From a virus (lineage: Duplodnaviria; Caudoviricetes), in the IMG/VR virus record IMGVR_UViG_3300045594_000116, positions 128,001 through 192,000 of that record: a stretch of 64,000 bases of DNA; one strand, given 5' to 3'. The first letter of the stretch is position 1. Each line of letters starts with the position of its first letter. The translations under genes and the position numbers were made by a program. Positions 4,128 to 55,050 of this stretch are shown piece after piece. The notes under the pieces are model-generated. The model ran no database searches. It was not told the DNA's origin and worked only from the letters and a program-made list of their open reading frames with translations.

Positions 4128-4928
4128 ATGGCATTAGGACAAACGTATGACAACAACAAAAATGAGGCTTATCGCCCTACAGTGTATGGTATTTCGATGA
4201 GCAATACAGGAGAGAGCGCAGTTGACAAAACTCAGTTGTCTTTCTCTATGTGGAAAGGTACTATTAAAGTACAGATCGCACCAATGGTTAAAGCATCATC
4301 GTCTGACGATTTCCCGAAAGCAGATCGTGATTCTGCTGCATCCATCTATCTTAGCCCATCTAAGGCTTATATGCTTTCGCAGATTATGCGTAAGTGCTTG
4401 GATGATATTAAAGCCTTCCCGTTGGATGGCTATTCCATCAATGCTGGTGGTGGTCTTATCACTATCAGCTCTGGTAAAGATTTCGGAGCTAAGAACCCAT
4501 GCATCGTTCTTCGTTCGATCAATCCGGATACCGGCAAGGTTGAAGCGATGTATGCATATGAGTTCAAGACTGATTACCATACGGTAATTGAGAACTACAA
4601 TGAAGAGAAAGGTAGCTATACTGAAAATGCAAAGATGTTTGCAAACATCGAGATGCAGCAGGTGATTGAGCAGCTTGAAGACTATGCTCGCTCTTCCAAT
4701 CACGCATATGCATTCTCTGTATGTGATAGCATGTCTTTCCAGCTGAACTCTGTACGTTCTGACATTGGCAAAGTTGCTGAGAAACTTGGCGTAACGCTTG
4801 GTAGTAAGGGCGGACGCAAAGGAACATCTCGTAGCTTCTTCAATAAAGGCGGAAATGGTGGAAACGCCAGTGAGAGTGTAGCTCATCAGACTGCGACCAT
4901 TGATGATATCGTTGGTAACGACGACTAA
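4128..4928 (+). CDS. putative single-stranded DNA-binding protein
   Basis: Beta-rich N-terminus, Gly-rich linker, acidic C-terminal tip (TIDDIVGNDD) typical of SSBs; inference from architecture only. Confidence 0.4.
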   Translation: MALGQTYDNNKNEAYRPTVYGISMSNTGESAVDKTQLSFSMWKGTIKVQIAPMVKASSSDDFPKADRDSAASIYLSPSKAYMLSQIMRKCLDDIKAFPLDGYSINAGGGLITISSGKDFGAKNPCIVLRSINPDTGKVEAMYAYEFKTDYHTVIENYNEEKGSYTENAKMFANIEMQQVIEQLEDYARSSNHAYAFSVCDSMSFQLNSVRSDIGKVAEKLGVTLGSKGGRKGTSRSFFNKGGNGGNASESVAHQTATIDDIVGNDD

Positions 4929-4978
4929 ATTAAAAGGAGGATAAAGAGTGTACTTAGGTGCACTCTTTATTTTTTGCC

Positions 4979-5623
4979 ATGAGTAAAGTAAATACTATAA
5001 ATAATCTTGTAGAGTTTAATTGCATTCTTGGCACTGATGTCGGTATAGTTAAGGTACTATTGAAGCACTATGGTAAGTCTGGGTATTTCGATATCCATTA
5101 TTCTACAGAGAACTCATTGAAAAATAAGTTACTTTGGAGGGATAATTGGAATCCTCTTACTATAATGCTTAAACCGGATTATATGGATAGTGCCAATGAT
5201 TTATACAAAGAGGTAGTTAAGAAGTATGAGGATGAGATATATGAGTTATCTCCTTATACTGACATTCTAAGATTCATGAATCTTATGCAGAATAATGATG
5301 ATTGGAAAACCAACTGTTGCGTAAATTGTAAAAATGAACGACAAAAACAAATCGTTAAACAGATCAATTCGAGATTTCAAATCTCGATAGATCAAATTAG
5401 CATGAGAGAGTATACGACTCTCTTTATTAATGAGATAGAGAATATTGCTAAGTATCGAGATCTTGGAGGGAAGTATATCTTCATATCTAATTATAGATTC
5501 AACCTTACTGAAGACTTTGTACCTAAACCGGTCATACTCTTAGAAGGTGGTTATAATAAGGTGAGAATGATAGATCCTTATAAAGGTCTACGATTACCAG
5601 TCAAAAACGAAGGAGATATGTGA
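4979..5623 (+). CDS. hypothetical protein
   Basis: Open frame that overlaps the start region of the chaperonin gene. Confidence 0.65.
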   Translation: MSKVNTINNLVEFNCILGTDVGIVKVLLKHYGKSGYFDIHYSTENSLKNKLLWRDNWNPLTIMLKPDYMDSANDLYKEVVKKYEDEIYELSPYTDILRFMNLMQNNDDWKTNCCVNCKNERQKQIVKQINSRFQISIDQISMREYTTLFINEIENIAKYRDLGGKYIFISNYRFNLTEDFVPKPVILLEGGYNKVRMIDPYKGLRLPVKNEGDM

Positions 5624-21741: not shown

Positions 21742-22146
21742 CGAAATCTTAAGATAGGTCTACTGTGGATATCCACTCATTACCTATCCCTCTATTGCTA
21801 GAGCTTGATCTTTTCGATCAATGTCGAGACTATCTCTTCAACTCTAGATTCCTCTAGAGTTGGGTGGCACTTCCAACCCGTTTGGGCCGTACTTCCTTTC
21901 GGAATAGTCGTTGAACCTTCAAAAAATGTAATCTTTGAATTTGATACTGATTACAATTTAAGCTTGGCTGCTGATTGCCCATTGTACAAAGCACTTAGAG
22001 TTACTATCCCCATATGCTATCTTATAGTTTGTTTCTGCATTTCGCGACCTTTGTAAGGTACTATAAGCTTTAGGACTTCCCAGCAATTCACTCACCTTTT
22101 CGACGACCCTCACGAGCCGAAGGACCTATTGTTCTTTTGAACGTCA
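21742..22146 (-). ncRNA. group I self-splicing intron (405 nt, no homing endonuclease)
   Basis: Minus-strand core elements P (AAUUGCUGGGAA), Q (AAUCAGCAGCC), R (GUUCAACGACUA), S (AAGAGAUAGUC); exon ends in U and intron ends in G; splicing restores KIDMNGLYG. Confidence 0.9.
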
Positions 22147-22582
22147 AGCCATTCATATCAATCTTTGCTAACAACTGCAGCAGATTGTATTTGTTAAACA
22201 TCTCCGTACCTTTAGGATACTTGAACATCTCATTCTTGTATTTGGTACGTAAGTCTGCAAGACTTTCAATGAAGTTATAGTATGGGTTTACTACATCTCC
22301 ATGTCTTGCAAAGAGAACACCATATGCAGTGATGATCGGCTTTTTACTAGATATATAATCCACCATCTGCTTAAGTGTTGAGGTAACCTCTTTGTTTTTG
22401 TAGTTATTCAAGAGAGTGCAATCTGCATCCTTGAATCTCTTTTCCATAGAGAAGTCTATCACCTTTGCGATTTCATCTTCCAATAAAGATGGAAATGCAA
22501 GTTTAAGACTTCGCATCATGACGTTTTTGTACTCTTTAAGCGGGTCGTCATCCCGCAGCCCAAGATTAAATAGTTCAGCCAT
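22147..22582 (-). CDS. family B DNA polymerase C-terminal subunit, exon 1 (spliced product 708 aa)
   Basis: RTKYK...QLLAKIDMNG is the first half of motif B (KxxxNxxYG); aaggagg RBS. Confidence 0.88.
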
Positions 22583-42250: not shown

Positions 42251-44566
42251 TTATTGTTCTTGCTTTTCGTCTTCCTTCTCTTTGACAACCTCCATTTGCA
42301 CTTCATCAATGAGTGCCTGCATGTCATCTGCCGGGAAGAACAAACTAGTGTATTTCTTTTTAAGCTCTGCAACAAGTTTAGGTTTGATAAGATCAGCATC
42401 CTTAGCATTATCACTAACGTACATATTCGTTATTGCTTCTGATATATCATTAGCGCTTGTAAGAATCTGAGTAGTATTCATTGTCATAAGGTAAGTCGGT
42501 ACATTAGGAACGTACTCGATTTCCTCATTACTGTCAAACTCTGCATTGTAAATACGAGTAAGAATAGTGCTGAACATCTTCTTTACTAATGCCTGCAGAT
42601 TATAGATAGTCTGCAAGAATCTCGTATTCGTCATTGTAAGTCTAGTTGCATAATCGGTAGCCTGATGGGCCTGAATATAATCATATGGAACACCAGTAGA
42701 TTGAACAGCCATCTCTTCGAGAGCATTCATAAGATCAGTCTTGACCTCTACATTCTGCCCAGGAATGGTTTCTACATCTATTGGAGCGTCTCCAGATGGG
42801 GATTTAGGAATGAGCAGGTCATTGAACCTACCAAGCATACCAAGAACGTTATTCATCGATTCAATCTGTCTAACACCGAAGTTAGAACGCTGAATCTGAT
42901 TGATAGCATTCATCAATGTATCTGAGATATTCGTATCTACCATCTGTTTTACATAATAAACACGCTTATCATTTCCTCTTGTAAGGATAGAAATTACATT
43001 GGAGATATACAAGCAGCTATAGAGTTTAGCCGGGAACAACGCTTTACGAAGAGACGAAATACCACGATGTGTTTCATCATCTTGCTCAAAGAAGCAATGA
43101 ACCATATCATCCGGAGGGATGAATGTAATACGCATCTTAGAGATACGTCCTTCTGCATTCATAGTAGAGTTATACTTCAAGATAGCATAGATCTCTTTAG
43201 TCAGGTCCTGATTAGCATTGACGAAAGTCTTATCGATCTTACGTGAAATAGCCATAGCAAGATTCTTGAGTAATCTAGTCTCCTGAGTATCCTGATAGAA
43301 TGGATCTCTATTCTTATCTTTGTATGCACCGCCTGGGCGAATACCTCCAATGGTATTAGAAAAAGTAGTCTTCTCAAGATCAAATTTTCTATCACATTCG
43401 ATATAGAAATACCCAATGCAGATATCATCGATATACAGCGGTTTAACCATTGTATGATCAAGAATCTTTACAACGCAGCCAGGAACCTTGAGCTGCAGTT
43501 CTTTGTCATCTCCATACCCAGGGGTCTTGAGCCCATCCTGTGTTAGCCCATCAAGCTTATAGAAGTTATCGGAGCCTTTCTTGATACTATCGCCAATAGA
43601 GATATTTTTTGTAACATCGTTCTTCTTACCTTCATTATCTTTTTCGGTCTTGAGAACTGTTTCATTGATAGCAAGACTTGCTGCTTCTTTAAGAATGCTA
43701 TTAGCTTTCTTATATCCTGATAAAGCAGACTTGATAACACAGCTTTTATCCATCTCTACAATGAAGTTACTTTTACTTGGTTCTACGTTATCAGTGAAGA
43801 ATCCTTCGTCAACCGCATGTACCTCTGTATCTCCACTGGTAGGGTCCATTCCGATCGTAAACGCTTCATTGACTGGTCCTGGATCGCTTACTGAAGCCTC
43901 ACCTAGGAATCCAGAAGTAGGACCTAACCCAAATCTTTCATTATCCGACAGTAATCTTTTGATTGCTTTACGGTATGGAACTACATATACAAAGCACTCT
44001 CCGAGTTTATCAGTTTGACGATAAACTTTATCGAGAATCAGATCGAGTTTGTACTTCTCTTTCATATCTTTGATATTGTTTGCCACGCCGATATCTTTTC
44101 CGGCAGCAGACTTAGATCTAATATGAAGCGTAGTGCTTGTAAAGTTATCAGAGCATAATACATGCTCACGACGAGTTGTCAAAGCATCTTCCAGCTTTGG
44201 CATGTATTTCAGAATCATTTCGATTTCACGGTCAATGTCTCTTAACCATGAATTCTGGGTATACGTTTGCATTATAGAACTCATGATAGATTCATTCTCT
44301 AATGACGCATTGATACCTTGTACAACATCCTCATCATTCTGCATGCTGCCAAGTTTAGTTTTCGTCAAAAGAGCAGAAATGTTGGTAGTACCAACATTGC
44401 TAATATTATTACCTATCAGATTATCTATGCTACGGTGTGCTCTTGTTCTCATGTAGGACAGAGTCTTGCTAACACCAGGATCTGTGTAGTATGTACTACT
44501 ATACATATCACCCATGCCAGTGTCAATAGACTGCTTCAGTTTGTCCATATCTTTTTCACTTGCCAT
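42251..44566 (-). CDS. portal protein (T4 gp20-like)
   Basis: TRGNDKRVYYV corresponds to the T4 gp20 RAPERR motif; DVETIPG and TGVP motifs; late promoter 44591-44602(-). Confidence 0.75.
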   Translation of the reverse strand: MASEKDMDKLKQSIDTGMGDMYSSTYYTDPGVSKTLSYMRTRAHRSIDNLIGNNISNVGTTNISALLTKTKLGSMQNDEDVVQGINASLENESIMSSIMQTYTQNSWLRDIDREIEMILKYMPKLEDALTTRREHVLCSDNFTSTTLHIRSKSAAGKDIGVANNIKDMKEKYKLDLILDKVYRQTDKLGECFVYVVPYRKAIKRLLSDNERFGLGPTSGFLGEASVSDPGPVNEAFTIGMDPTSGDTEVHAVDEGFFTDNVEPSKSNFIVEMDKSCVIKSALSGYKKANSILKEAASLAINETVLKTEKDNEGKKNDVTKNISIGDSIKKGSDNFYKLDGLTQDGLKTPGYGDDKELQLKVPGCVVKILDHTMVKPLYIDDICIGYFYIECDRKFDLEKTTFSNTIGGIRPGGAYKDKNRDPFYQDTQETRLLKNLAMAISRKIDKTFVNANQDLTKEIYAILKYNSTMNAEGRISKMRITFIPPDDMVHCFFEQDDETHRGISSLRKALFPAKLYSCLYISNVISILTRGNDKRVYYVKQMVDTNISDTLMNAINQIQRSNFGVRQIESMNNVLGMLGRFNDLLIPKSPSGDAPIDVETIPGQNVEVKTDLMNALEEMAVQSTGVPYDYIQAHQATDYATRLTMTNTRFLQTIYNLQALVKKMFSTILTRIYNAEFDSNEEIEYVPNVPTYLMTMNTTQILTSANDISEAITNMYVSDNAKDADLIKPKLVAELKKKYTSLFFPADDMQALIDEVQMEVVKEKEDEKQEQ

Positions 44567-44969: not shown

Positions 44970-45710
44970 TCATCTCTGAAGAATCTTTACGATTGTGGTG
45001 ACCTTGACATTTTTCTTTGGTTTGGCTACAGTATAGGAAGCATATGTATCTCTACCATACTCGGTATCCGCATACTTAATTCCTATAGAGCATGAATCAC
45101 CCTTATTCATATTTACCAATCCAGACCATACTGGAACGATATTATGACCAATAGGGATAAATCTAAGCCCTTGCTCTGCCTTTGCATTAACCGCATTCAT
45201 AAAGTCTTCTCTTGTAGATACATCTTCTGAATAAGCAACTGCTACCTTATTGGTATTGGTCAATATCATAGCAGCTACCCGGCCAAAGTTAGTATCATTA
45301 AGTGCAATAGGTATATTAGCCTTAAGAGCATTAGAAGCACTTACTACACTTAATCCTGTAGAGAATGCACCATAATCGTTTTCAAAGTTAATGAGAGTGA
45401 ATCTATCAGATTCCTCTGTAGCTTCTTTGACTACCGCATGTAGATCATTGATACTGATAGCAAACATTACCCCTTGCTCTGGAGTGTTTCTAAGTACAGG
45501 AGTTCCATCTGAAATGTTTGACGCGTACTTGATAACTGAAAGGTTAAGATTAGACATACCCATTCCGAGCATGTCAATCTCACCAGTTATCGCATCAGGC
45601 CAAACAAATACCAGATCCTCCTTACCAGTTTTCACCAATTTAGATCTTTCATCTAAGTTTCGTATGAAAGCAGTGTCTACGTATCTGTATGAGTTAGGTC
45701 TTGCAATCAT
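44970..45710 (-). CDS. hypothetical protein translationally coupled to the DNA polymerase (possible sliding clamp)
   Basis: ATGA overlap with the polymerase gene; 246-aa alpha/beta protein; the clamp role is speculative. Confidence 0.55.
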   Translation of the reverse strand: MIARPNSYRYVDTAFIRNLDERSKLVKTGKEDLVFVWPDAITGEIDMLGMGMSNLNLSVIKYASNISDGTPVLRNTPEQGVMFAISINDLHAVVKEATEESDRFTLINFENDYGAFSTGLSVVSASNALKANIPIALNDTNFGRVAAMILTNTNKVAVAYSEDVSTREDFMNAVNAKAEQGLRFIPIGHNIVPVWSGLVNMNKGDSCSIGIKYADTEYGRDTYASYTVAKPKKNVKVTTIVKILQR

Positions 45711-47653
45711 TTGTTCATTACCTCTTTGATAATTCTTTTATATTCACTTTCTACGTCTTTAGGCATCTGCTGATAGATGCTGATTACTTCCTTCTTGAAG
45801 TTAGGATCTACAAGGCGCAGCGGAGTGAACTTCTCGTTATTGTGCCAGAAGCGTAATACTTCTTTCTTACCACGAGCCATTCCTTCTCGCAAACCATGAG
45901 CAGAGTTATGAGTTTCAAAGTATTCATGCACATCATTCATCATTTCTTCGAATGAAGCTAGATGGAACCAGCGATGTCCAAAGCTAATATAATCACATGC
46001 ACAATAGTCTTCGAAGAATGCAGTGGTTCTAAAGAACTTCGGATTATTACTGAGATTTTCCTTATCATGAATCTTCTTATCGATAAACATACGTCCGATC
46101 TGCCCATTGGTGCAGATATTGAACTCCTGCATAATAGATGGATACAGACGTTTGTAATCGAAGTCATTTGCATTCTTTACAAGCATAATCGGCTTGCCAT
46201 TAACTTTAACCTTAGGTTTATCGGTTACCTGAGTCAAAGCTGCTACGAATGCACCAGGGAATTTCTCATTTGGCTTTTCTTTGAACTTGTTGCAGTTATT
46301 GCCCATAACAAGATCATTCTCTGCAAGCATAAACTTAGAAGCTCTGTTTGCAAGATACATTGTCTGACGATGAACCTTCGGATACATCGTGTCGTTTACA
46401 ATAGCCTTATTGAAAACGTAGTTGATATCGCCAGTTTTCTCTTCAATGCATTTCTGAACCATGACATCCATCATATTGTATTTGATGAACGTTACGAAAT
46501 CTAAGTATGGGAACTCAACGATATCATTGGTGATATCATGATAGTCTAACTTTCTAGCTCCGGCTACCACACCACCAATGTAGTCCAATCCAAACGTAGC
46601 AAATGCTGACTGTCCTTTACGTCTAGATGCAAACTCAATCATCTGATCAAGATACACACTATAAGAACTGATGTCTGCATAATCACCACGCTGAGCAAAT
46701 TCAGCTTCATGATCTTTATCGATCTTATAGTAACAATGCTTCTCTTCAAAATCCGGATGACAGATAATATCAGCCGGATCATATCCTAAGTTAATAAATC
46801 TTTGAATCAGATATGGAATATCAAATGCCATGTTCCATGCTAAGACAAAGTCTGGTTGCAGATGATTGATGATGTTAAACATACTTACCAACATCGTAAG
46901 CTCATCATCAAATACAACGACCTTCACTTTGATATCCTTAAGATGCATGCGGTATGCTTTCTTCCAACCGCCTACATTGTTAAACAGAAACTCTTTGAAT
47001 TCCTGCTCCATATTATGACTAGCGATATACTCTTCAAACTTTGCCACCTGAGGATTATTTGAATCCCTGAATGTAAATGTATACAGAGTATTATCTACTT
47101 CATTGAACATCGAGATTGCATTTACAGGGCACTCTCCAGGCTGTGGAAAATCCCCTACCATATATCTACCATCAACCTCGATATCGAGATATGCTTTTGT
47201 AACGGGAACCGTTGGATTCTGATATTGCTCATCAAACAACTTACGATAGTAGTTGTTGATATTCATATCTGAACTCATAAGAGATGGATGCGTATGAAGA
47301 ATCTGATTAGCCCTTCTATTACCACTTCTGATATTATCATAGAAGAACTCTTTCATATTCAGCTCTTCTGCAATGCTCTTTTCCAAATCATGGAACGGAA
47401 CTGTTATAGGATCGCACTTCGAGCGTTCTATGAACACCTGTGGATAATCCTTCACGAATTCAGGCTTAATTTTGTAATAGGTATACTTTGGCTCTTTGAT
47501 GACCTCTATACCTTTCTTTCCAGTTTCATTGTCCTTATACACTATCGTCATCGTATCTGGGTGAAGATTACCTTCCTCATCCTTACGTGGATAGTGATAC
47601 ATATTGTTCATAATAGTGATATTACTGTCCTTATTATAACCTTTGATTAACAT
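45707..47653 (-). CDS. family B DNA polymerase N-terminal subunit (3'-5' exonuclease + motif A)
   Basis: Exo I LDIEVD, Exo II AWNMAFDIPY, Exo III YNMMDV, FPGAFV, motif A DFDYKRLYPS. Confidence 0.92.
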   Translation of the reverse strand: MLIKGYNKDSNITIMNNMYHYPRKDEEGNLHPDTMTIVYKDNETGKKGIEVIKEPKYTYYKIKPEFVKDYPQVFIERSKCDPITVPFHDLEKSIAEELNMKEFFYDNIRSGNRRANQILHTHPSLMSSDMNINNYYRKLFDEQYQNPTVPVTKAYLDIEVDGRYMVGDFPQPGECPVNAISMFNEVDNTLYTFTFRDSNNPQVAKFEEYIASHNMEQEFKEFLFNNVGGWKKAYRMHLKDIKVKVVVFDDELTMLVSMFNIINHLQPDFVLAWNMAFDIPYLIQRFINLGYDPADIICHPDFEEKHCYYKIDKDHEAEFAQRGDYADISSYSVYLDQMIEFASRRKGQSAFATFGLDYIGGVVAGARKLDYHDITNDIVEFPYLDFVTFIKYNMMDVMVQKCIEEKTGDINYVFNKAIVNDTMYPKVHRQTMYLANRASKFMLAENDLVMGNNCNKFKEKPNEKFPGAFVAALTQVTDKPKVKVNGKPIMLVKNANDFDYKRLYPSIMQEFNICTNGQIGRMFIDKKIHDKENLSNNPKFFRTTAFFEDYCACDYISFGHRWFHLASFEEMMNDVHEYFETHNSAHGLREGMARGKKEVLRFWHNNEKFTPLRLVDPNFKKEVISIYQQMPKDVESEYKRIIKEVMNK

Positions 47654-50335: not shown

Positions 50336-50414
50336 AGCAATATAAAGAGAGGTCATTACGACCTCTCTATTGTTTTTTTTTGACAAATTAGTAATTATAA
50401 AGGAGGATTTTATC

Positions 50415-50960
50415 ATGTTAGAAACATATTTTTCTGGTGATAGCAATTATGCTGTATTAACCATACCAAGTTTTGTTGCAAAAGTATACTTAGAATATAA
50501 AGTCGCAGACTTAAATTTCAGAGATCCTATAGACGATCAGCTTGTTTTATATTCAGATAATGGAGATAATGCTAGATATCTTTTCTATAATTGCTATGGT
50601 GGTTGGGACGCACGCACAATGTACTATAATGGATCTGAAAGTCAGGTAACTAGAAGAGGAGCAACCTGGCCTGGAGATGGGATCATAGGGATGGCGATAG
50701 ATTACACTAATAAGTATGTGAACTTCTATTATGACAATACATTATTTGGTAGTGTCACACTACCTAATACCACATTTAGAAAAGTATTCATTGAAAGTAG
50801 CTGTGAAGGCAGATTACACCACGAACTTACGGTAGAACAAAGACTCAGCAAAGAATCGATTACCTATCCAAAAGACGGATTCCCATGTTATCTTGATGCA
50901 CTCAATGTGTATTCAGCTTTGCACGATATCCCTACAGATACGATTAGATGGTATATGTGA
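50415..50960 (+). CDS. SPRY/concanavalin-like domain protein
   Basis: KVYLEY and GDGIIGMAIDYTNKYVNFYYDN SPRY-like motifs; aaggagg RBS; GACA-N6-TA site. Confidence 0.6.
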   Translation: MLETYFSGDSNYAVLTIPSFVAKVYLEYKVADLNFRDPIDDQLVLYSDNGDNARYLFYNCYGGWDARTMYYNGSESQVTRRGATWPGDGIIGMAIDYTNKYVNFYYDNTLFGSVTLPNTTFRKVFIESSCEGRLHHELTVEQRLSKESITYPKDGFPCYLDALNVYSALHDIPTDTIRWYM

Positions 50961-51007
50961 CGCACAGTAAAGGAGAGAGCCAATGCGGCTCTCTCCGATA
51001 TTGTGTT
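50961..51007. terminator. bidirectional hairpin with TGTG tails on both strands
   Basis: ggagagagcc-aatgc-ggctctctcc flanked by gcacagtaa and gatattgtg. Confidence 0.65.
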
Positions 51008-51050
51008 ACGACAGAAATAAACCGTTTACAACGGCATTCATAAATATTTA

Positions 51051-51491
51051 TGCTGGTATGACTGCTTAGGGAAGAAACCCATGCTTGACTCACTGGCAAA
51101 AACCTTGATCTAAGATTTTATAATTGGATTGTGATGATTAACTTTTAAGATCTTAAGTCTACTGGATTAACAAAAAGTTTAACGGCTTAATAGCTTAATG
51201 ATAATTGATTAAATCTTAATGATTATCTCTTCATCTTAATTTTAATCAGAACTGGGGCTTGAACCCAGAGAGTAACATAGAGTATCTATGCCATGCGTTT
51301 ACCAATTTCGCCATTCTGCTTAAATAAAGTATGTAGATTTTTGGATCATCTACAATGCTATCTTTGTTTGATAGTTTGCTTTTTGTTTTTGATTCAACTG
51401 ATCAAAAGTTAAGCGATAGCTTTTGTTTTGTACGGTAAAAGCTATCGAAAGACCGCTGAGCCTTTTCTTGGATTTTTACATCATATCAGCA
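51051..51491 (-). ncRNA. putative ~440-nt structured non-coding RNA
   Basis: 5' UGCUGAUAUGAU pairs with 3' GUCAUACCAGCA; internal hairpins; periodic UUAA motifs; no ORF; contains a tRNA-like domain. Confidence 0.65.
51245..51320 (-). other. tRNA-like domain without a canonical anticodon loop
   Basis: Acceptor CAGAA/UUCUG, D arm UGGCGAAAUUGGUAAACGC, T arm CUGGG-UUCAAGC-CCCAG; anticodon arm replaced by an 8-9 bp hairpin with a 3-5 nt loop; no CCA. Confidence 0.7.
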
Positions 51492-51501
51492 ATGATACTT
51501 A

Positions 51502-52170
51502 TCAATATTCGATTTCAATCTCCGTGATCTCAGTCATATGACCAAGAGCAGCGTCGATGTTCACCAGATAGGCATCGATTGCCTCTGCGGCATTTTTCAT
51601 CTTCTTAGTGATCTCAGCCGGATCAAGAAGATCTACCTTGTACTGTGCATTCAGCTCAGCCTCACGATTAGCGCGCTGAGTCGACGATGCATTCGTAGTA
51701 TTGCCGAATTCGTTGTTAACACGCTCGACAATGTAACGATCAGTTTCTTTGACACGCTTGGTATACATCTTGGATACCGAGCTAACGCCATTGGTGATAG
51801 TACGCATGATGCTCGTAAGTTCATTCTTGTAGTAGTTCTTACGAGCGATAGCAGCAGCGAATGAAAGCGATTCTTTCTCATCCCCATTGATGTCGTCGAA
51901 TGACTTGAACTTCGGTACTTCGATGTACGTCTTTGCATTTGCATTGAGAATAGCATTTGCAATGGCTTCACGACGAACGATCTTATCGTTCAGGGACTGC
52001 CAACGAGCTTTAGCGTCAGCTTCCCAGTCTTCAACAGAGAGACCATTGATGATCTTCTCGGTATTGTCTTTTGTTGTGGTAAATGCTTTCATAGAAGCAG
52101 AATCAATCTGCTTATCGAGCATCTTCTTCTGCGCGAGCGCAGCTCTGAGTGTCATGGTTTCTTTTACCAT
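51502..52170 (-). CDS. helical/coiled-coil protein directly upstream of the ncRNA
   Basis: MTLRAALAQKKMLDKQI...IDAALGHMTEITEIEIEY; strong codon bias; ggagg RBS before MVKET. Confidence 0.8.
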   Translation of the reverse strand: MVKETMTLRAALAQKKMLDKQIDSASMKAFTTTKDNTEKIINGLSVEDWEADAKARWQSLNDKIVRREAIANAILNANAKTYIEVPKFKSFDDINGDEKESLSFAAAIARKNYYKNELTSIMRTITNGVSSVSKMYTKRVKETDRYIVERVNNEFGNTTNASSTQRANREAELNAQYKVDLLDPAEITKKMKNAAEAIDAYLVNIDAALGHMTEITEIEIEY

Positions 52171-52338
52171 TTTACATTCCTCCAATTTAACAATTAATAG
52201 CTTAACCTTTGCTACTATAGTGTATATGCTGTAATAAATTTAAATTATTACTTTTTTCGTTATCATAATCAGATACCCGCCGGATTCGACATTAAATTAA
52301 AGCCAAAATATTATATGTTGAAAGGTTGTGTTTTTACT

Positions 52339-52992
52339 ATGAGTGCACCAAATTCAAACGGGGTATTACGTACTAATCTGAAAGATATGAAAATCGGGGA
52401 TTATATCAAGTGGCAATATAATGGCGGGTCTGATACTGCTATTGGAACTTTAAAGGCTGATGATGGAACAGAAAACGAATTGCCATCTATGCCATCTACT
52501 CCTTTAGCTACCGGAATTACAGGGTATTTCTACTTCATAAAGTGGAAGCAGGGATTACTAGTAGCGGATAGAGGCATTCATGCCAATATATCGGCCCAGA
52601 TGCTTAATAAAGTTGGCTATTTTAAAGGCAGTCAGTATTTTTGCCCATCTTTCGCCCAGTTCCAAGCATTCTGCGCCGATGATTTTAACGGCAATTTCAA
52701 ATTTAGCAATGCTAATTTTCCAATAGTGGCCGAATCCCTTACGCGTCCTGGTGTTAATATGGGCGAGGGTGGAGATCTTAAAGGAAGGCCCATTACCCAA
52801 GATTTAAAAATCGTTAGAGAGATAGGATATGCTCACATGACTGGTTATTACTTTGATACTACTGATCACATAGAATTTGCACAAAGGCAGAAAGATACTA
52901 TTGTAGCTGGCTGCCATGTATATCTTCCGACATATTTCTTGCCTTGCATGGAATATGTGGACAATTCGAAATCAACAAATATCTATTATTAA
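52339..52992 (+). CDS. single-domain relative of the adjacent repeat protein
   Basis: IGDYI...GYFYFIK...LLVADR.I..NIS...LN..G is shared with the repeats of 53002-55050. Confidence 0.65.
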   Translation: MSAPNSNGVLRTNLKDMKIGDYIKWQYNGGSDTAIGTLKADDGTENELPSMPSTPLATGITGYFYFIKWKQGLLVADRGIHANISAQMLNKVGYFKGSQYFCPSFAQFQAFCADDFNGNFKFSNANFPIVAESLTRPGVNMGEGGDLKGRPITQDLKIVREIGYAHMTGYYFDTTDHIEFAQRQKDTIVAGCHVYLPTYFLPCMEYVDNSKSTNIYY

Positions 52993-53001
52993 GGAAATTA
53001 G

Positions 53002-55050
53002 GTGATTAACTTGGCTGATATAACTTCACTAACTAAAGTGACAGACCCATACAATATCCAACCTGGCCAATACATTACCTGCGATTATACAACTACAGCA
53101 GCTAATGCCTTAGGTACTTTTAGTAACCTTGGCAAAGCTACTAAAGATCTTTTAGCAACTCCTCTTACAGGAGCAGGTGAGGGATCTTTTAACTTTATCT
53201 GTATCGGATGGGACTATGCGGGTAGACCTTATCTTATCGCTGATAGAGTTATTCAGACTAGCTTTAGCTTATCAAGCAATTCAGCTTTGAACACTACCTC
53301 TGGTACTACGGCTACGATCGATAGTTCAGTATCAGTCAACTTGCGTGTACTCAATAGAGACACATGGGATAAGGCAGTTGTAAAAGGCGGAGTGACTGGT
53401 ATAGCTGCTGGTGATGCATTATGGAATTTCTCTATCCCATCATGGACATTTGAACTTCCATCGGATAGCACTGATGGAACAGCAAACTATATCCTTGGTG
53501 GTGCAGCTGTTGATACGATTGCTACAAAAGCGATTAACACAACAGATGCAACGGTAGGATACCGTCCTGTAATGACCATCAATTCAAAGCCAGCATATCG
53601 CGGTAATCCTGGTCTTGCTGCAGGCATTACGCTTGTGACAGATCCAGCCAAATTAGTTCCTGGTACGGCTATCTCATGCGAGTATACTGTAACTACTAAG
53701 GGAGCTATCGGAACATATGCAAATCTTGGTAAAGCTACCAAAGATCCTTTACCAGATTACCCAGTAGATCTCCCAGATGGAACATTCTACTGGATCTGCG
53801 TTGGTTATACTCCAGCCGGATATCCGAAGTGCTTTGCCGATAGAAACATTCAGGCAAACATTTCATGGTCGACTTTGGCCACTGCAGCGCTTACCACTAC
53901 CTCTGGTACTGAAACTACAGTTAGCGGCCACAAATGCAATTTACGCATTCCTAATTCCATCCCAAATAGGCATATTAGCTTGCCAGATTCCAAGTATGGA
54001 GAGTGGGATGCAATCTTTACTACTTATAATGCAATGGGTATTAAAGCAAGTAATGACGTATGGAATACTAAATTCTCGCAGTCCTTTACGACAGCTATTC
54101 TCTCTGACGTAGATGATGCCGGCAATCTTGCAGATGGTACTTATATCATCGCTAGAGGTTGTCAGGATGGAACTGATGGAGTATATCAGGATAAAGAGGA
54201 TGCACAGGCTAAGTATACTCAGTCTCAGACACTCTCTAATGTAGGTTTCCGTCCTGTATTTATCTATACAGAGATCGATGCTAACTCAAGAGGTAAAGTA
54301 GGAACTACACTTCCATCTTTCGACTTTAAACCAGGAACGTATGTACAACCTGGTGAGGTTATTCCTTGTACCTATACGGTTACAACTAAAGGAACTCTTG
54401 GCAAGTTTACCGAATTTGGTGGAAAGTCTGACAAAGATTGGATCTTGGCAGAGGGTGAAGATCTTCCGGACGGTCGCTTTAACTTTATCTGTGTAGGTTA
54501 TACCCCTGATGGTTGTGCTAAGTTAGTAGCTGATAGAAACATTCAGACGAATATTTCTTGGACTGCTCTTAACAATGCTGGGCTTTGTCTCACTACCGGT
54601 AGTGATGTTCCTGTAGATGGAACTAACTGGAAGATGAGATTGTTCAACACTACCACTACCAGATTCGTATCTGAAACTGATTATGGTGAATGGGATGCTA
54701 TCATTAGTCTTATGACTAGAGCTGGTATTACTAAGCCATCAGATCCAGAGATATGGAACTGTGGTAATAACCGTAGTTGGACGCTTGCTACCATTGCTAC
54801 TATCGATGATGCTGGTACTCTTGGAACACAGGATAACTGTATTACTAGAGGCGTGCAGGATACTGCATTCAATATCAAGGACGCAAGCTTTACGAAGCAG
54901 GCTTTCCAAAGCGCTGCATATGCTTCTAAGACTATCGGCTTTAGACCAGTAATGTGGTTCAAACAGAAACCTGTATCAAGCACTAACCCTTATCGTGCAT
55001 TCGTACGTATTGAGGATGATGCTTTGTTCGCAAATCAGAATTTCTTCTAA
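53002..55050 (+). CDS. three-repeat putative adhesin or tail-associated protein (C-type-lectin-like repeats)
   Basis: Three ~220-aa repeats: PG..I.C.YT, FIC.G, ADR.IQ, W, ending G(Y/F)RPV. Confidence 0.65.
   Translation: MINLADITSLTKVTDPYNIQPGQYITCDYTTTAANALGTFSNLGKATKDLLATPLTGAGEGSFNFICIGWDYAGRPYLIADRVIQTSFSLSSNSALNTTSGTTATIDSSVSVNLRVLNRDTWDKAVVKGGVTGIAAGDALWNFSIPSWTFELPSDSTDGTANYILGGAAVDTIATKAINTTDATVGYRPVMTINSKPAYRGNPGLAAGITLVTDPAKLVPGTAISCEYTVTTKGAIGTYANLGKATKDPLPDYPVDLPDGTFYWICVGYTPAGYPKCFADRNIQANISWSTLATAALTTTSGTETTVSGHKCNLRIPNSIPNRHISLPDSKYGEWDAIFTTYNAMGIKASNDVWNTKFSQSFTTAILSDVDDAGNLADGTYIIARGCQDGTDGVYQDKEDAQAKYTQSQTLSNVGFRPVFIYTEIDANSRGKVGTTLPSFDFKPGTYVQPGEVIPCTYTVTTKGTLGKFTEFGGKSDKDWILAEGEDLPDGRFNFICVGYTPDGCAKLVADRNIQTNISWTALNNAGLCLTTGSDVPVDGTNWKMRLFNTTTTRFVSETDYGEWDAIISLMTRAGITKPSDPEIWNCGNNRSWTLATIATIDDAGTLGTQDNCITRGVQDTAFNIKDASFTKQAFQSAAYASKTIGFRPVMWFKQKPVSSTNPYRAFVRIEDDALFANQNFF

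Follow-up and report, generated by a model that had tools for sequence, protein, structure and literature searches.

A T5.085-like phage gene followed by a conserved, pseudoknotted RNA with a heptad repeat tract: a candidate ribonucleoprotein module

Results

The gene and its product

The window analysed here is a 64,000-nucleotide stretch of DNA, bases 128001-192000 of a 229.5-kb virus record that is 91% complete and in which a T4-like portal, a tail tube and a piece of a family B polymerase are encoded. On its minus strand, at 51502-52170, lies a gene of the T5.085 / PHROG1491 family (ATG at 52170, stop codon ending at 51502; ribosome binding site GGAGGA at 52178-52183) that encodes a mostly helical protein of 222 amino acids. 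A first-pass annotation of this DNA had called the gene strongly codon-biased, and this holds: the share of CGY among arginine codons is 0.91 compared with a genome median of 0.33, and for C-ending F/Y/N/D/I codons the gene ranks 12th of 153 ORFs. The PHROG 1491 profile matches the protein over its full length (residues 4-221, E 8.7e-26) and no family in Pfam or NCBIfam matches it; the annotation of a homologue (Serratia; Slocum) reads "similar to T5.085". A profile search retrieved 1998 representatives at 50% clustering, and homologues occur in phages of Bacillus, Vibrio, Clostridioides, Erwinia, Ralstonia, Pseudomonas, Serratia and Lactococcus as well as on Bacillus-type contigs. The Serratia homologue matches 746 phage records, many of them near-identical T5-like phages. 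The earlier placement of the family in Firmicutes is therefore only partly right: Bacillota are among the hosts, but the family is mainly phage-borne, extends to phages of Proteobacteria, and is found in just 4 of 401 sampled Bacillota-type genomes.

An AlphaFold model of the protein (pLDDT 97) consists mostly of long helices with four short strands, in agreement with the helical protein first described. Foldseek ranks the DIP1984 protein 3KDQ first for this model (probability 0.99, E 0.035), and VIA structural comparison with 3KDQ gives a Z of 11.9 (rmsd 6.3, 150 of 152 residues aligned) against 7.7 for the next match; helical folds can reach high Z by chance, and 3KDQ still stands 4 Z above the next match. 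Nothing except 3KDQ stood out as a fold relative in Foldseek or VIA, and others may exist. The model thus indicates that the window protein shares a DIP1984-like fold with 3KDQ. The motifs TxAxAL and NxxT are also shared with the DIP1984 family (NF038048, DUF6847), whereas the window protein is 70 residues longer and has no NF038048/DUF6847 profile match; the best of 149 relatives reaches E 0.0017 against the DIP1984 family profile, far below the curated cut-off. Among the same 149 relatives, the positions of the basic residues K16, R66, R67 and K111 are basic in 82-94%. A search for an internal two-fold repeat gave a 20-column match with a probability of 44%, and a predicted complex of four protein copies scored 0.30 (mark 0.42), which we count neither for nor against an oligomer. 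RefSeq and PHROG label the protein "tail fiber". We rejected this identity and regard the label as an annotation error because the model is helical and 3KDQ is the structure that it matches best; the gene also lies among tRNA and non-structural genes, both in T5 and in other phages.

Layout of the RNA in the window

Directly behind the gene, on the same strand, lies a predicted non-coding RNA of 441 nt (51051-51491). The coordinates first given for gene and RNA all proved correct on recheck, as did the description of the region as ORF-free and structured: the longest ATG frame has 39 codons, the fold reaches -102.6 kcal/mol (z -4.7), and 0 of 100 shuffles fold as stably. The ends are joined by the closing stem P1 (5' strand 51480-51491, 3' strand 51051-51062), which has 11 of 12 pairs and one A.C mismatch, exactly as noted before. 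The 5' strand of P1 is followed by the junction GUAA (51476-51479; family consensus YGAAA, with an invariant G) and by the 5' strand of P3, AAUCCA (51469-51474), which pairs with UGGGUU at 51076-51081. Towards the 3' end, a conserved AAAUC motif and the P2 5' strand CUUAG (51110-51118) face the P2 3' strand CUAAG and the conserved junction AGCAG (51062-51069; consensus GGCUG). P3 crosses P2 and so forms a pseudoknot; the first description included neither this conserved 3' core (51118-51062) nor the pseudoknot that it forms with 51474-51469.

The interior of the RNA begins with a variable domain, in which a 10-bp hairpin at 51415-51446 (51446-51437/51424-51415) is retained, with a compensatory change, in a 70%-identical relative (L296), and two small hairpins at 51332-51374 (51374-51358 and 51354-51332) are not family-wide; two of the three, the first and 51354-51348/51338-51332, had already been seen. 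They are followed by a tRNA-like domain at 51244-51320, with a D arm that has a GG loop and a T arm at 51268-51252, and by a YAA-centred repeat tract at 51120-51245 with a period of about 7-8 nt, 11 UUAA and up to 17 units by a chain model. The recurrence of TTAA that first drew attention to 51135-51245 is real, with 11 occurrences in 111 nt and at most 5 in any other segment of that length in the 229.5-kb genome. Downstream of P1, two terminator-like hairpins (51035-51021 and 50996-50972, together 50972-51035, minus strand) agree with the terminator proposed earlier; the stem at 50996-50972, which faces a convergent gene (50370-50960), scores on both strands. A search for sigma-70 promoters returned nothing above chance.

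The RNA accompanies the gene across phages

We took the DNA 3' of the stop codon at 279 loci and kept 115 whose proteins are less than 70% identical. A strict pattern, made up of an AAAUCC-like motif, the five-pair stem P2, a GGCUG-like motif and the closing stem P1, is present at 78 of the 115 loci and in none of the 106 upstream controls or 115 shuffles. With motif variants 102 loci could be anchored, and a covariance model of the 3' core adds 11 directly behind the gene, so that the core directly follows the gene at 113 of 115 loci. A further seven relatives of the window clade all carry the core, one of them (L298) weakly (E 0.07). The RNA is always in cis, starting 6-49 nt behind the stop codon, and in the strict set its median length is 333 nt (range 259-483). 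The copy in phage T5 occupies an unannotated gap behind T5.085, at 43142-43504. When 80 whole genomes were scanned with the core model, good scores came only from the three that have the whole gene, and three weak matches lie inside other ORFs. By this comparison, gene and RNA are inherited together in one order. Two of the 115 loci count against this: L013 has no detectable core, and at L088 the core is 2.2 kb from the gene. At L088 (3142-5480) tract and core both lie at that distance behind the gene, the usual 5' stem is missing at the stop codon, and the RNA was probably split by an insertion; L013, in a 284-kb phage, has closing stem-like pairing and a repeated 15-nt motif at 4678-5300, possibly a divergent type of the RNA. 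In Brevibacillus phage Jenst, a skipping-rope RNA (L015 3628-3705) sits between the stop codon and P1, and BsrG comes after the RNA.

No family in Rfam (Rfam 15) covers the core. The first-pass annotation had named as refuting its proposal, at the level of sequence, the lack of a conserved or covarying stem or repeat arm behind homologues and a match to a described Rfam family; none of these was seen, since the RNA is conserved and covarying, has a repeat tract and finds no Rfam match for its core.

The genomic setting varies. A tRNA gene lies within 1.5 kb at 45 of 96 loci, and among protein-coding genes PIN-PhoH (15 loci) and a phosphoesterase (12 loci) recur nearby. The RNA-repair genes proposed as neighbours in the first-pass annotation were not found: RtcB and TROVE/Ro60 are missing from the recurring neighbours in flanks of 2.5-5 kb, and searches of the 91%-complete genome found neither. 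The data show several other features. Next to the gene, at 52315-55050 on the plus strand, two adjacent genes share an unknown domain (PHROG 30895), and their order is kept in L296. A family B DNA polymerase gene on the minus strand (45707-47653, 648 aa, PHROG 3011 match) encodes an exonuclease domain; of the polymerase domain it has just a short piece, and it is probably part of a split polymerase. A group I intron is located at 21804-22158, also on the minus strand (Rfam RF00028, 66.9 bits). At L298, a reverse-transcriptase gene with an RT-18 RNA (1502-2668) lies on the other strand, 1.4 kb upstream of the homologue.

Helices and pseudoknotted core

P1 has at least 11 of 12 pairs at 78 of 101 loci, compared with 3.6% when strands are swapped between loci; its sequence is free, and its pairing is kept. 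With the register fixed by Watson-Crick pairs only, P1 contains 100 G-U and 7 A-C oppositions. Because G-U far exceeds A-C, selection acts on the RNA of the gene's strand, and the asymmetry rules out a DNA-level element. For P2, 139 cells with two-sided changes stand against 37 in shuffles; the comparison is partly circular, and the counts lean high because rows were selected on P2 pairing. Two-sided changes occur at four of the five P2 pairs, and the window copy has one of them (C-G to U-A). P3, between the bases after the 5' junction and a strand inside the P2 loop, has a helix score of 6.47 for own strands compared with 4.11 for swapped ones, with the own strand better in 84 of 89 cases, and its three top mutual-information pairs share one diagonal. 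An internal hairpin, P5, has modest support (67/89). A further helix, P4, in which the 5' strand would pair with GGUUU after P2, looked plausible by eye, failed the swap test (45/89) and was dropped. On this evidence, the DNA behind the T5.085-like gene almost certainly encodes a conserved functional RNA.

The anatomy of the core invites two further explanations. The core could be a catalytic RNA that processes, circularises or ligates itself, with the protein as cofactor or chaperone and the variable domain as a peripheral insertion. Invariant unpaired bases sit at the P1/P2/P3 junctions (the G of YGAAA, AAA, C and G), core spacing is near-constant (53-56 nt in 53 of 78), and together with the pseudoknot this would suit a catalytic RNA, as would the tolerance of large insertions (about 650 nt in L031), which recalls the loops of self-splicing introns. 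The invariant junction bases fit a protein-docking site equally well, however; no Rfam ribozyme or intron model matches, the hammerhead core CUGANGA is absent (downstream of CUG the sequence is free to vary and takes part in P1), and catalysis leaves the fixed number of heptads unexplained. We consider a catalytic core unlikely; hammerhead and group I ribozymes in particular were rejected, as the family has neither an Rfam match to them nor a catalytic core motif. A tmRNA, which would have tRNA-Ala-like ends with CCA and a tag reading frame, was likewise rejected: ARAGORN reports 0, Rfam gives no match, and the ends of the RNA pair in a 12-16-bp stem of free sequence. Secondly, the core could be an aptamer and the particle a sponge that soaks up a small nucleotide used as a signal in host immunity. 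A compact pseudoknot with invariant junctions and a spread over unrelated large phages (the 746 records), like that of counter-defence genes, would be in keeping with such a role, which we nevertheless regard as very improbable: the core matches no known riboswitch model, and the module is also present on Bacillus-type contigs.

The heptad tract

The repeats had been described as periodic TTAA motifs. The periodic tract is indeed part of the RNA family, but the family unit is a 7-nt, YAA-centred heptad and not TTAA. In the 100 nt before AAAUC, YAR triplets are enriched 3.6-, 3.0-, 2.35- and 1.7-fold at lags of 7, 14, 21 and 28 nt, in phase with the core, and the signal is flat in shuffles. The unit reads YAAUC in the window clade and YAAAG in most others (AAUC 46% in the window clade, AAAG 33% elsewhere); since kin share a unit, this association with protein clade is only suggestive. 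A reading of the UAA repeats as stop codons was discarded, as most relatives use CAA/UAAAG units. A type III toxin-antitoxin system was rejected too: such systems have tandem 34-57-nt repeats upstream of an RNase toxin, and here 7-nt units lie downstream of a protein that has no RNase family match.

The tract has a median of 11 units (interquartile range 10-12). An oligomer or filament of the protein had been suggested to bind the repeats; the fairly fixed unit count would favour a closed oligomer over an open filament. TRAP is a beta-sheet 11-mer that reads (G/U)AG at a period of about 5 nt in a 5' leader, and spaced short repeats are the hallmark of TRAP and HutP sites, both of which act on leaders. 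With its short units, about 11 of them, evenly spaced, near-fixed in number across the family and weakly paired, the tract resembles the trp and hut leaders and would suit a ring that offers one site per subunit; the differences are that the window protein is helical, that the period is 7, and that a stem closes the RNA, which follows the gene. Two observations count against the explanation we prefer: in the window copy the units are spaced more loosely (7-14 nt) and exceed the family median in number, and across the family the tract has a mean MFE z of -0.7 and is not measurably unstructured.

The same likeness suggests a cis-acting 3' element, in which the protein would bind the heptads of its own transcript and control its stability or read-through into tRNA genes. 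The TRAP/HutP-type repeats, the invariable position in cis 6-49 nt behind the stop codon, and the tRNA genes that follow at once in several phages would all be accounted for. Against this, in the window and at many other loci a terminator marks the end of the RNA and nothing co-oriented lies beyond it, the tRNA array is upstream in Bacillus phages, no switch-like alternative pairing was seen, and a closed RNA of 330-440 nt with exchangeable cargo far exceeds the needs of autoregulation. On balance we find this explanation quite unlikely.

Variable domain and tRNA-like cargo

Between P3 and the tract, the 5' domain of the RNA is folded (mean z -2.2) without being conserved, and it is freely exchangeable cargo. 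In the window, the domain at 51320-51244 had been called tRNA-like, and it scores 29.5 bits on the Rfam tRNA model, just above the gathering threshold of 29. ARAGORN finds 0 tRNA genes in the window and in the whole record and does not call this domain; its "anticodon" arm (51293-51273) has a 9-bp stem and a 3-nt loop in place of the standard 5-bp stem and 7-nt loop, and its acceptor stem is embedded, runs on into the heptad tract and has no CCA end. Judged by anticodon arm, ARAGORN and CCA, it is not a tRNA gene. The wider proposal, that a decayed tRNA gene lies in an AT-rich spacer behind a tail-fibre gene and that the pairing is due to chance, could appeal to the "tail fiber" label in RefSeq and PHROG and to a tRNA-like part that barely passes the Rfam cut-off. 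It is refuted by the strict-pattern controls, the P1 swap test, the G-U asymmetry and the P2 covariation; the helical model, the 3KDQ match and the position of the gene among tRNA and non-structural genes also speak against it, and its probability is practically negligible.

A perfect T arm is present in 13 of 102 variable domains and in 0 shuffles. The order D arm, middle arm, T arm is found in the window copy, L001 and L296: L001 differs from the window copy by fold-preserving changes, while L296 retains the D-loop GG and the T loop around a different middle arm unrelated to that of the window. A permuted order, with the T arm first, then an acceptor-like hairpin and then the D arm, is found in L299 (4814-4913), L306 (4803-4897) and L298 (4797-4901), and L027 has a permuted module as well; in L306 the hairpin loop of the module reads ACCAUAU. 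The permuted order is the one described for YrlA (PMC4201824). The variable domain of L177 contains two whole tRNA-like units in one RNA. The feature that persists is the corner of a tRNA and not an anticodon. In one subclade the cargo is of another kind: Rfam RAGATH-19 (RF03096) is the variable domain of L002 and L005 (115-116 bits) and covers 139-144 nt of the cargo, without P1, the heptads or the 3' core. Neither RAGATH-19 nor RAGATH-27 matches in the window by Rfam, and RAGATH-27 stays below the cut-off in T5, BCP8-2, G276 and G404.

Discussion

The likeliest account of these data is a two-part phage module in which gene and RNA form a ribonucleoprotein, an oligomer of the protein binds the heptads, and the particle displays the cargo; we put the probability of this reading at roughly 0.6. 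Its central step, that the RNA forms a ribonucleoprotein with its cognate protein, is probable. Co-occurrence as such does not separate a trans-acting ribonucleoprotein from a cis element or a ribozyme. In the ribonucleoprotein reading, the RNA would be co-transcribed with the gene and then cut back to the form that P1 closes. The helical protein would bind the heptads as an oligomer, at about one unit per subunit, through the conserved basic residues, much as TRAP binds its triplets, and the core would set the register and protect the RNA ends. The particle might then keep the RNA stable during infection and display the variable domain.

What the display would be for is the weakest step of the argument. 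Since the cargo can be a tRNA elbow and the module often sits in tRNA arrays, the likeliest job, which we propose tentatively, is that of a stable decoy, or of a display platform, acting against host defence and decay directed at RNA or tRNA. Anticodon nucleases are known to be countered by phage tRNAs. The decoy job cannot, however, be founded on tRNA mimicry alone, because a T arm is missing from 87% of variable domains and a nearby tRNA gene from half of the loci. A more specific version is rather doubtful: a ring of about 11-13 helical subunits would thread the heptads, the core would clamp the ends, and swappable modules (tRNA elbows in either order, RAGATH-19, hairpins) would neutralise host RNA-directed defences.

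Among known systems, the module works most like Ro60-Y RNA, with its cognate RNA and tRNA corner, and like TRAP, with its spaced units, and it is a member of neither. Like Ro60 with YrlA and Yrn1 (PMC4201824), it combines a non-coding RNA with a neighbouring protein gene, in bacteria and phages; the RNA ends are paired in a long stem, and CGAA adjoins the 5' strand of that stem. Mimicry of tRNA D and T arms in two orientations has been described for YrlA and Yrn1 (Chen et al. 2014, PMC4201824), and the window RNA has such arms, which in the family as a whole are confined to 13 of 102. The differences are several. The window protein is not a TROVE protein, and PF05731 has no match in the 91%-complete genome; the Y RNA motif GNCGAAN0-1G is replaced by NNYGAAA in the family, where the two bases before Y are free and G stands at -2 in 29%, and the window copy reads UGUAAAA at this position; finally, the heptad tract and the pseudoknot are features of the window RNA family and not of Y RNAs.

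GOLLD and ROOL are structured phage RNAs whose job is unknown and which lie in or near tRNA arrays. The stable RNAs of T5 (RNAX, RNA I-IV) are, by the T5 annotation, likewise structured and in or near the tRNA array, and all of these differ from the module in having no dedicated upstream protein; the window RNA has no Rfam match. PAK_P3 sRNA1/2 are RNAs of about 100 nt (PMC4933390), and we found nothing in that paper that links them to the module. DIP1984 genes are also trailed by a conserved RNA, whose motifs differ and which the model R1 does not find; that this fold relative has an RNA of its own speaks for the ribonucleoprotein reading. In Bacillota (L281-L291, 0-230 nt past the stop codon) this RNA is about 200 nt long, contains GGCGAG, ACUACC and GUGAGGGYGGG, has no Rfam match, occurs as tandem copies in two genomes, and shows a weak 7-nt period (1.5-1.7-fold on 9 loci).

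The pair fits no catalogued system among those tested and most likely represents a new kind. The case for newness is built on sequence anatomy and on finding no match in Rfam 15 and no description of the gene-RNA module in the open literature searched.

These results matter first because no fewer than 746 sequenced phage records, a large share of them from near-identical T5-like phages, contain the gene-plus-RNA pair, among them T5, Bacillus phage G, phiCD211 and PVP-SE1, with the protein mislabelled and the RNA unannotated. To this family the window adds, from a phage without tRNA genes, a tRNA-corner cargo that close relatives keep in one order or the other. The work also gives the DIP1984/DUF6847 fold a first lead to a function and, if the ring reading is true, T5 would possess a natural modular device for RNA display.
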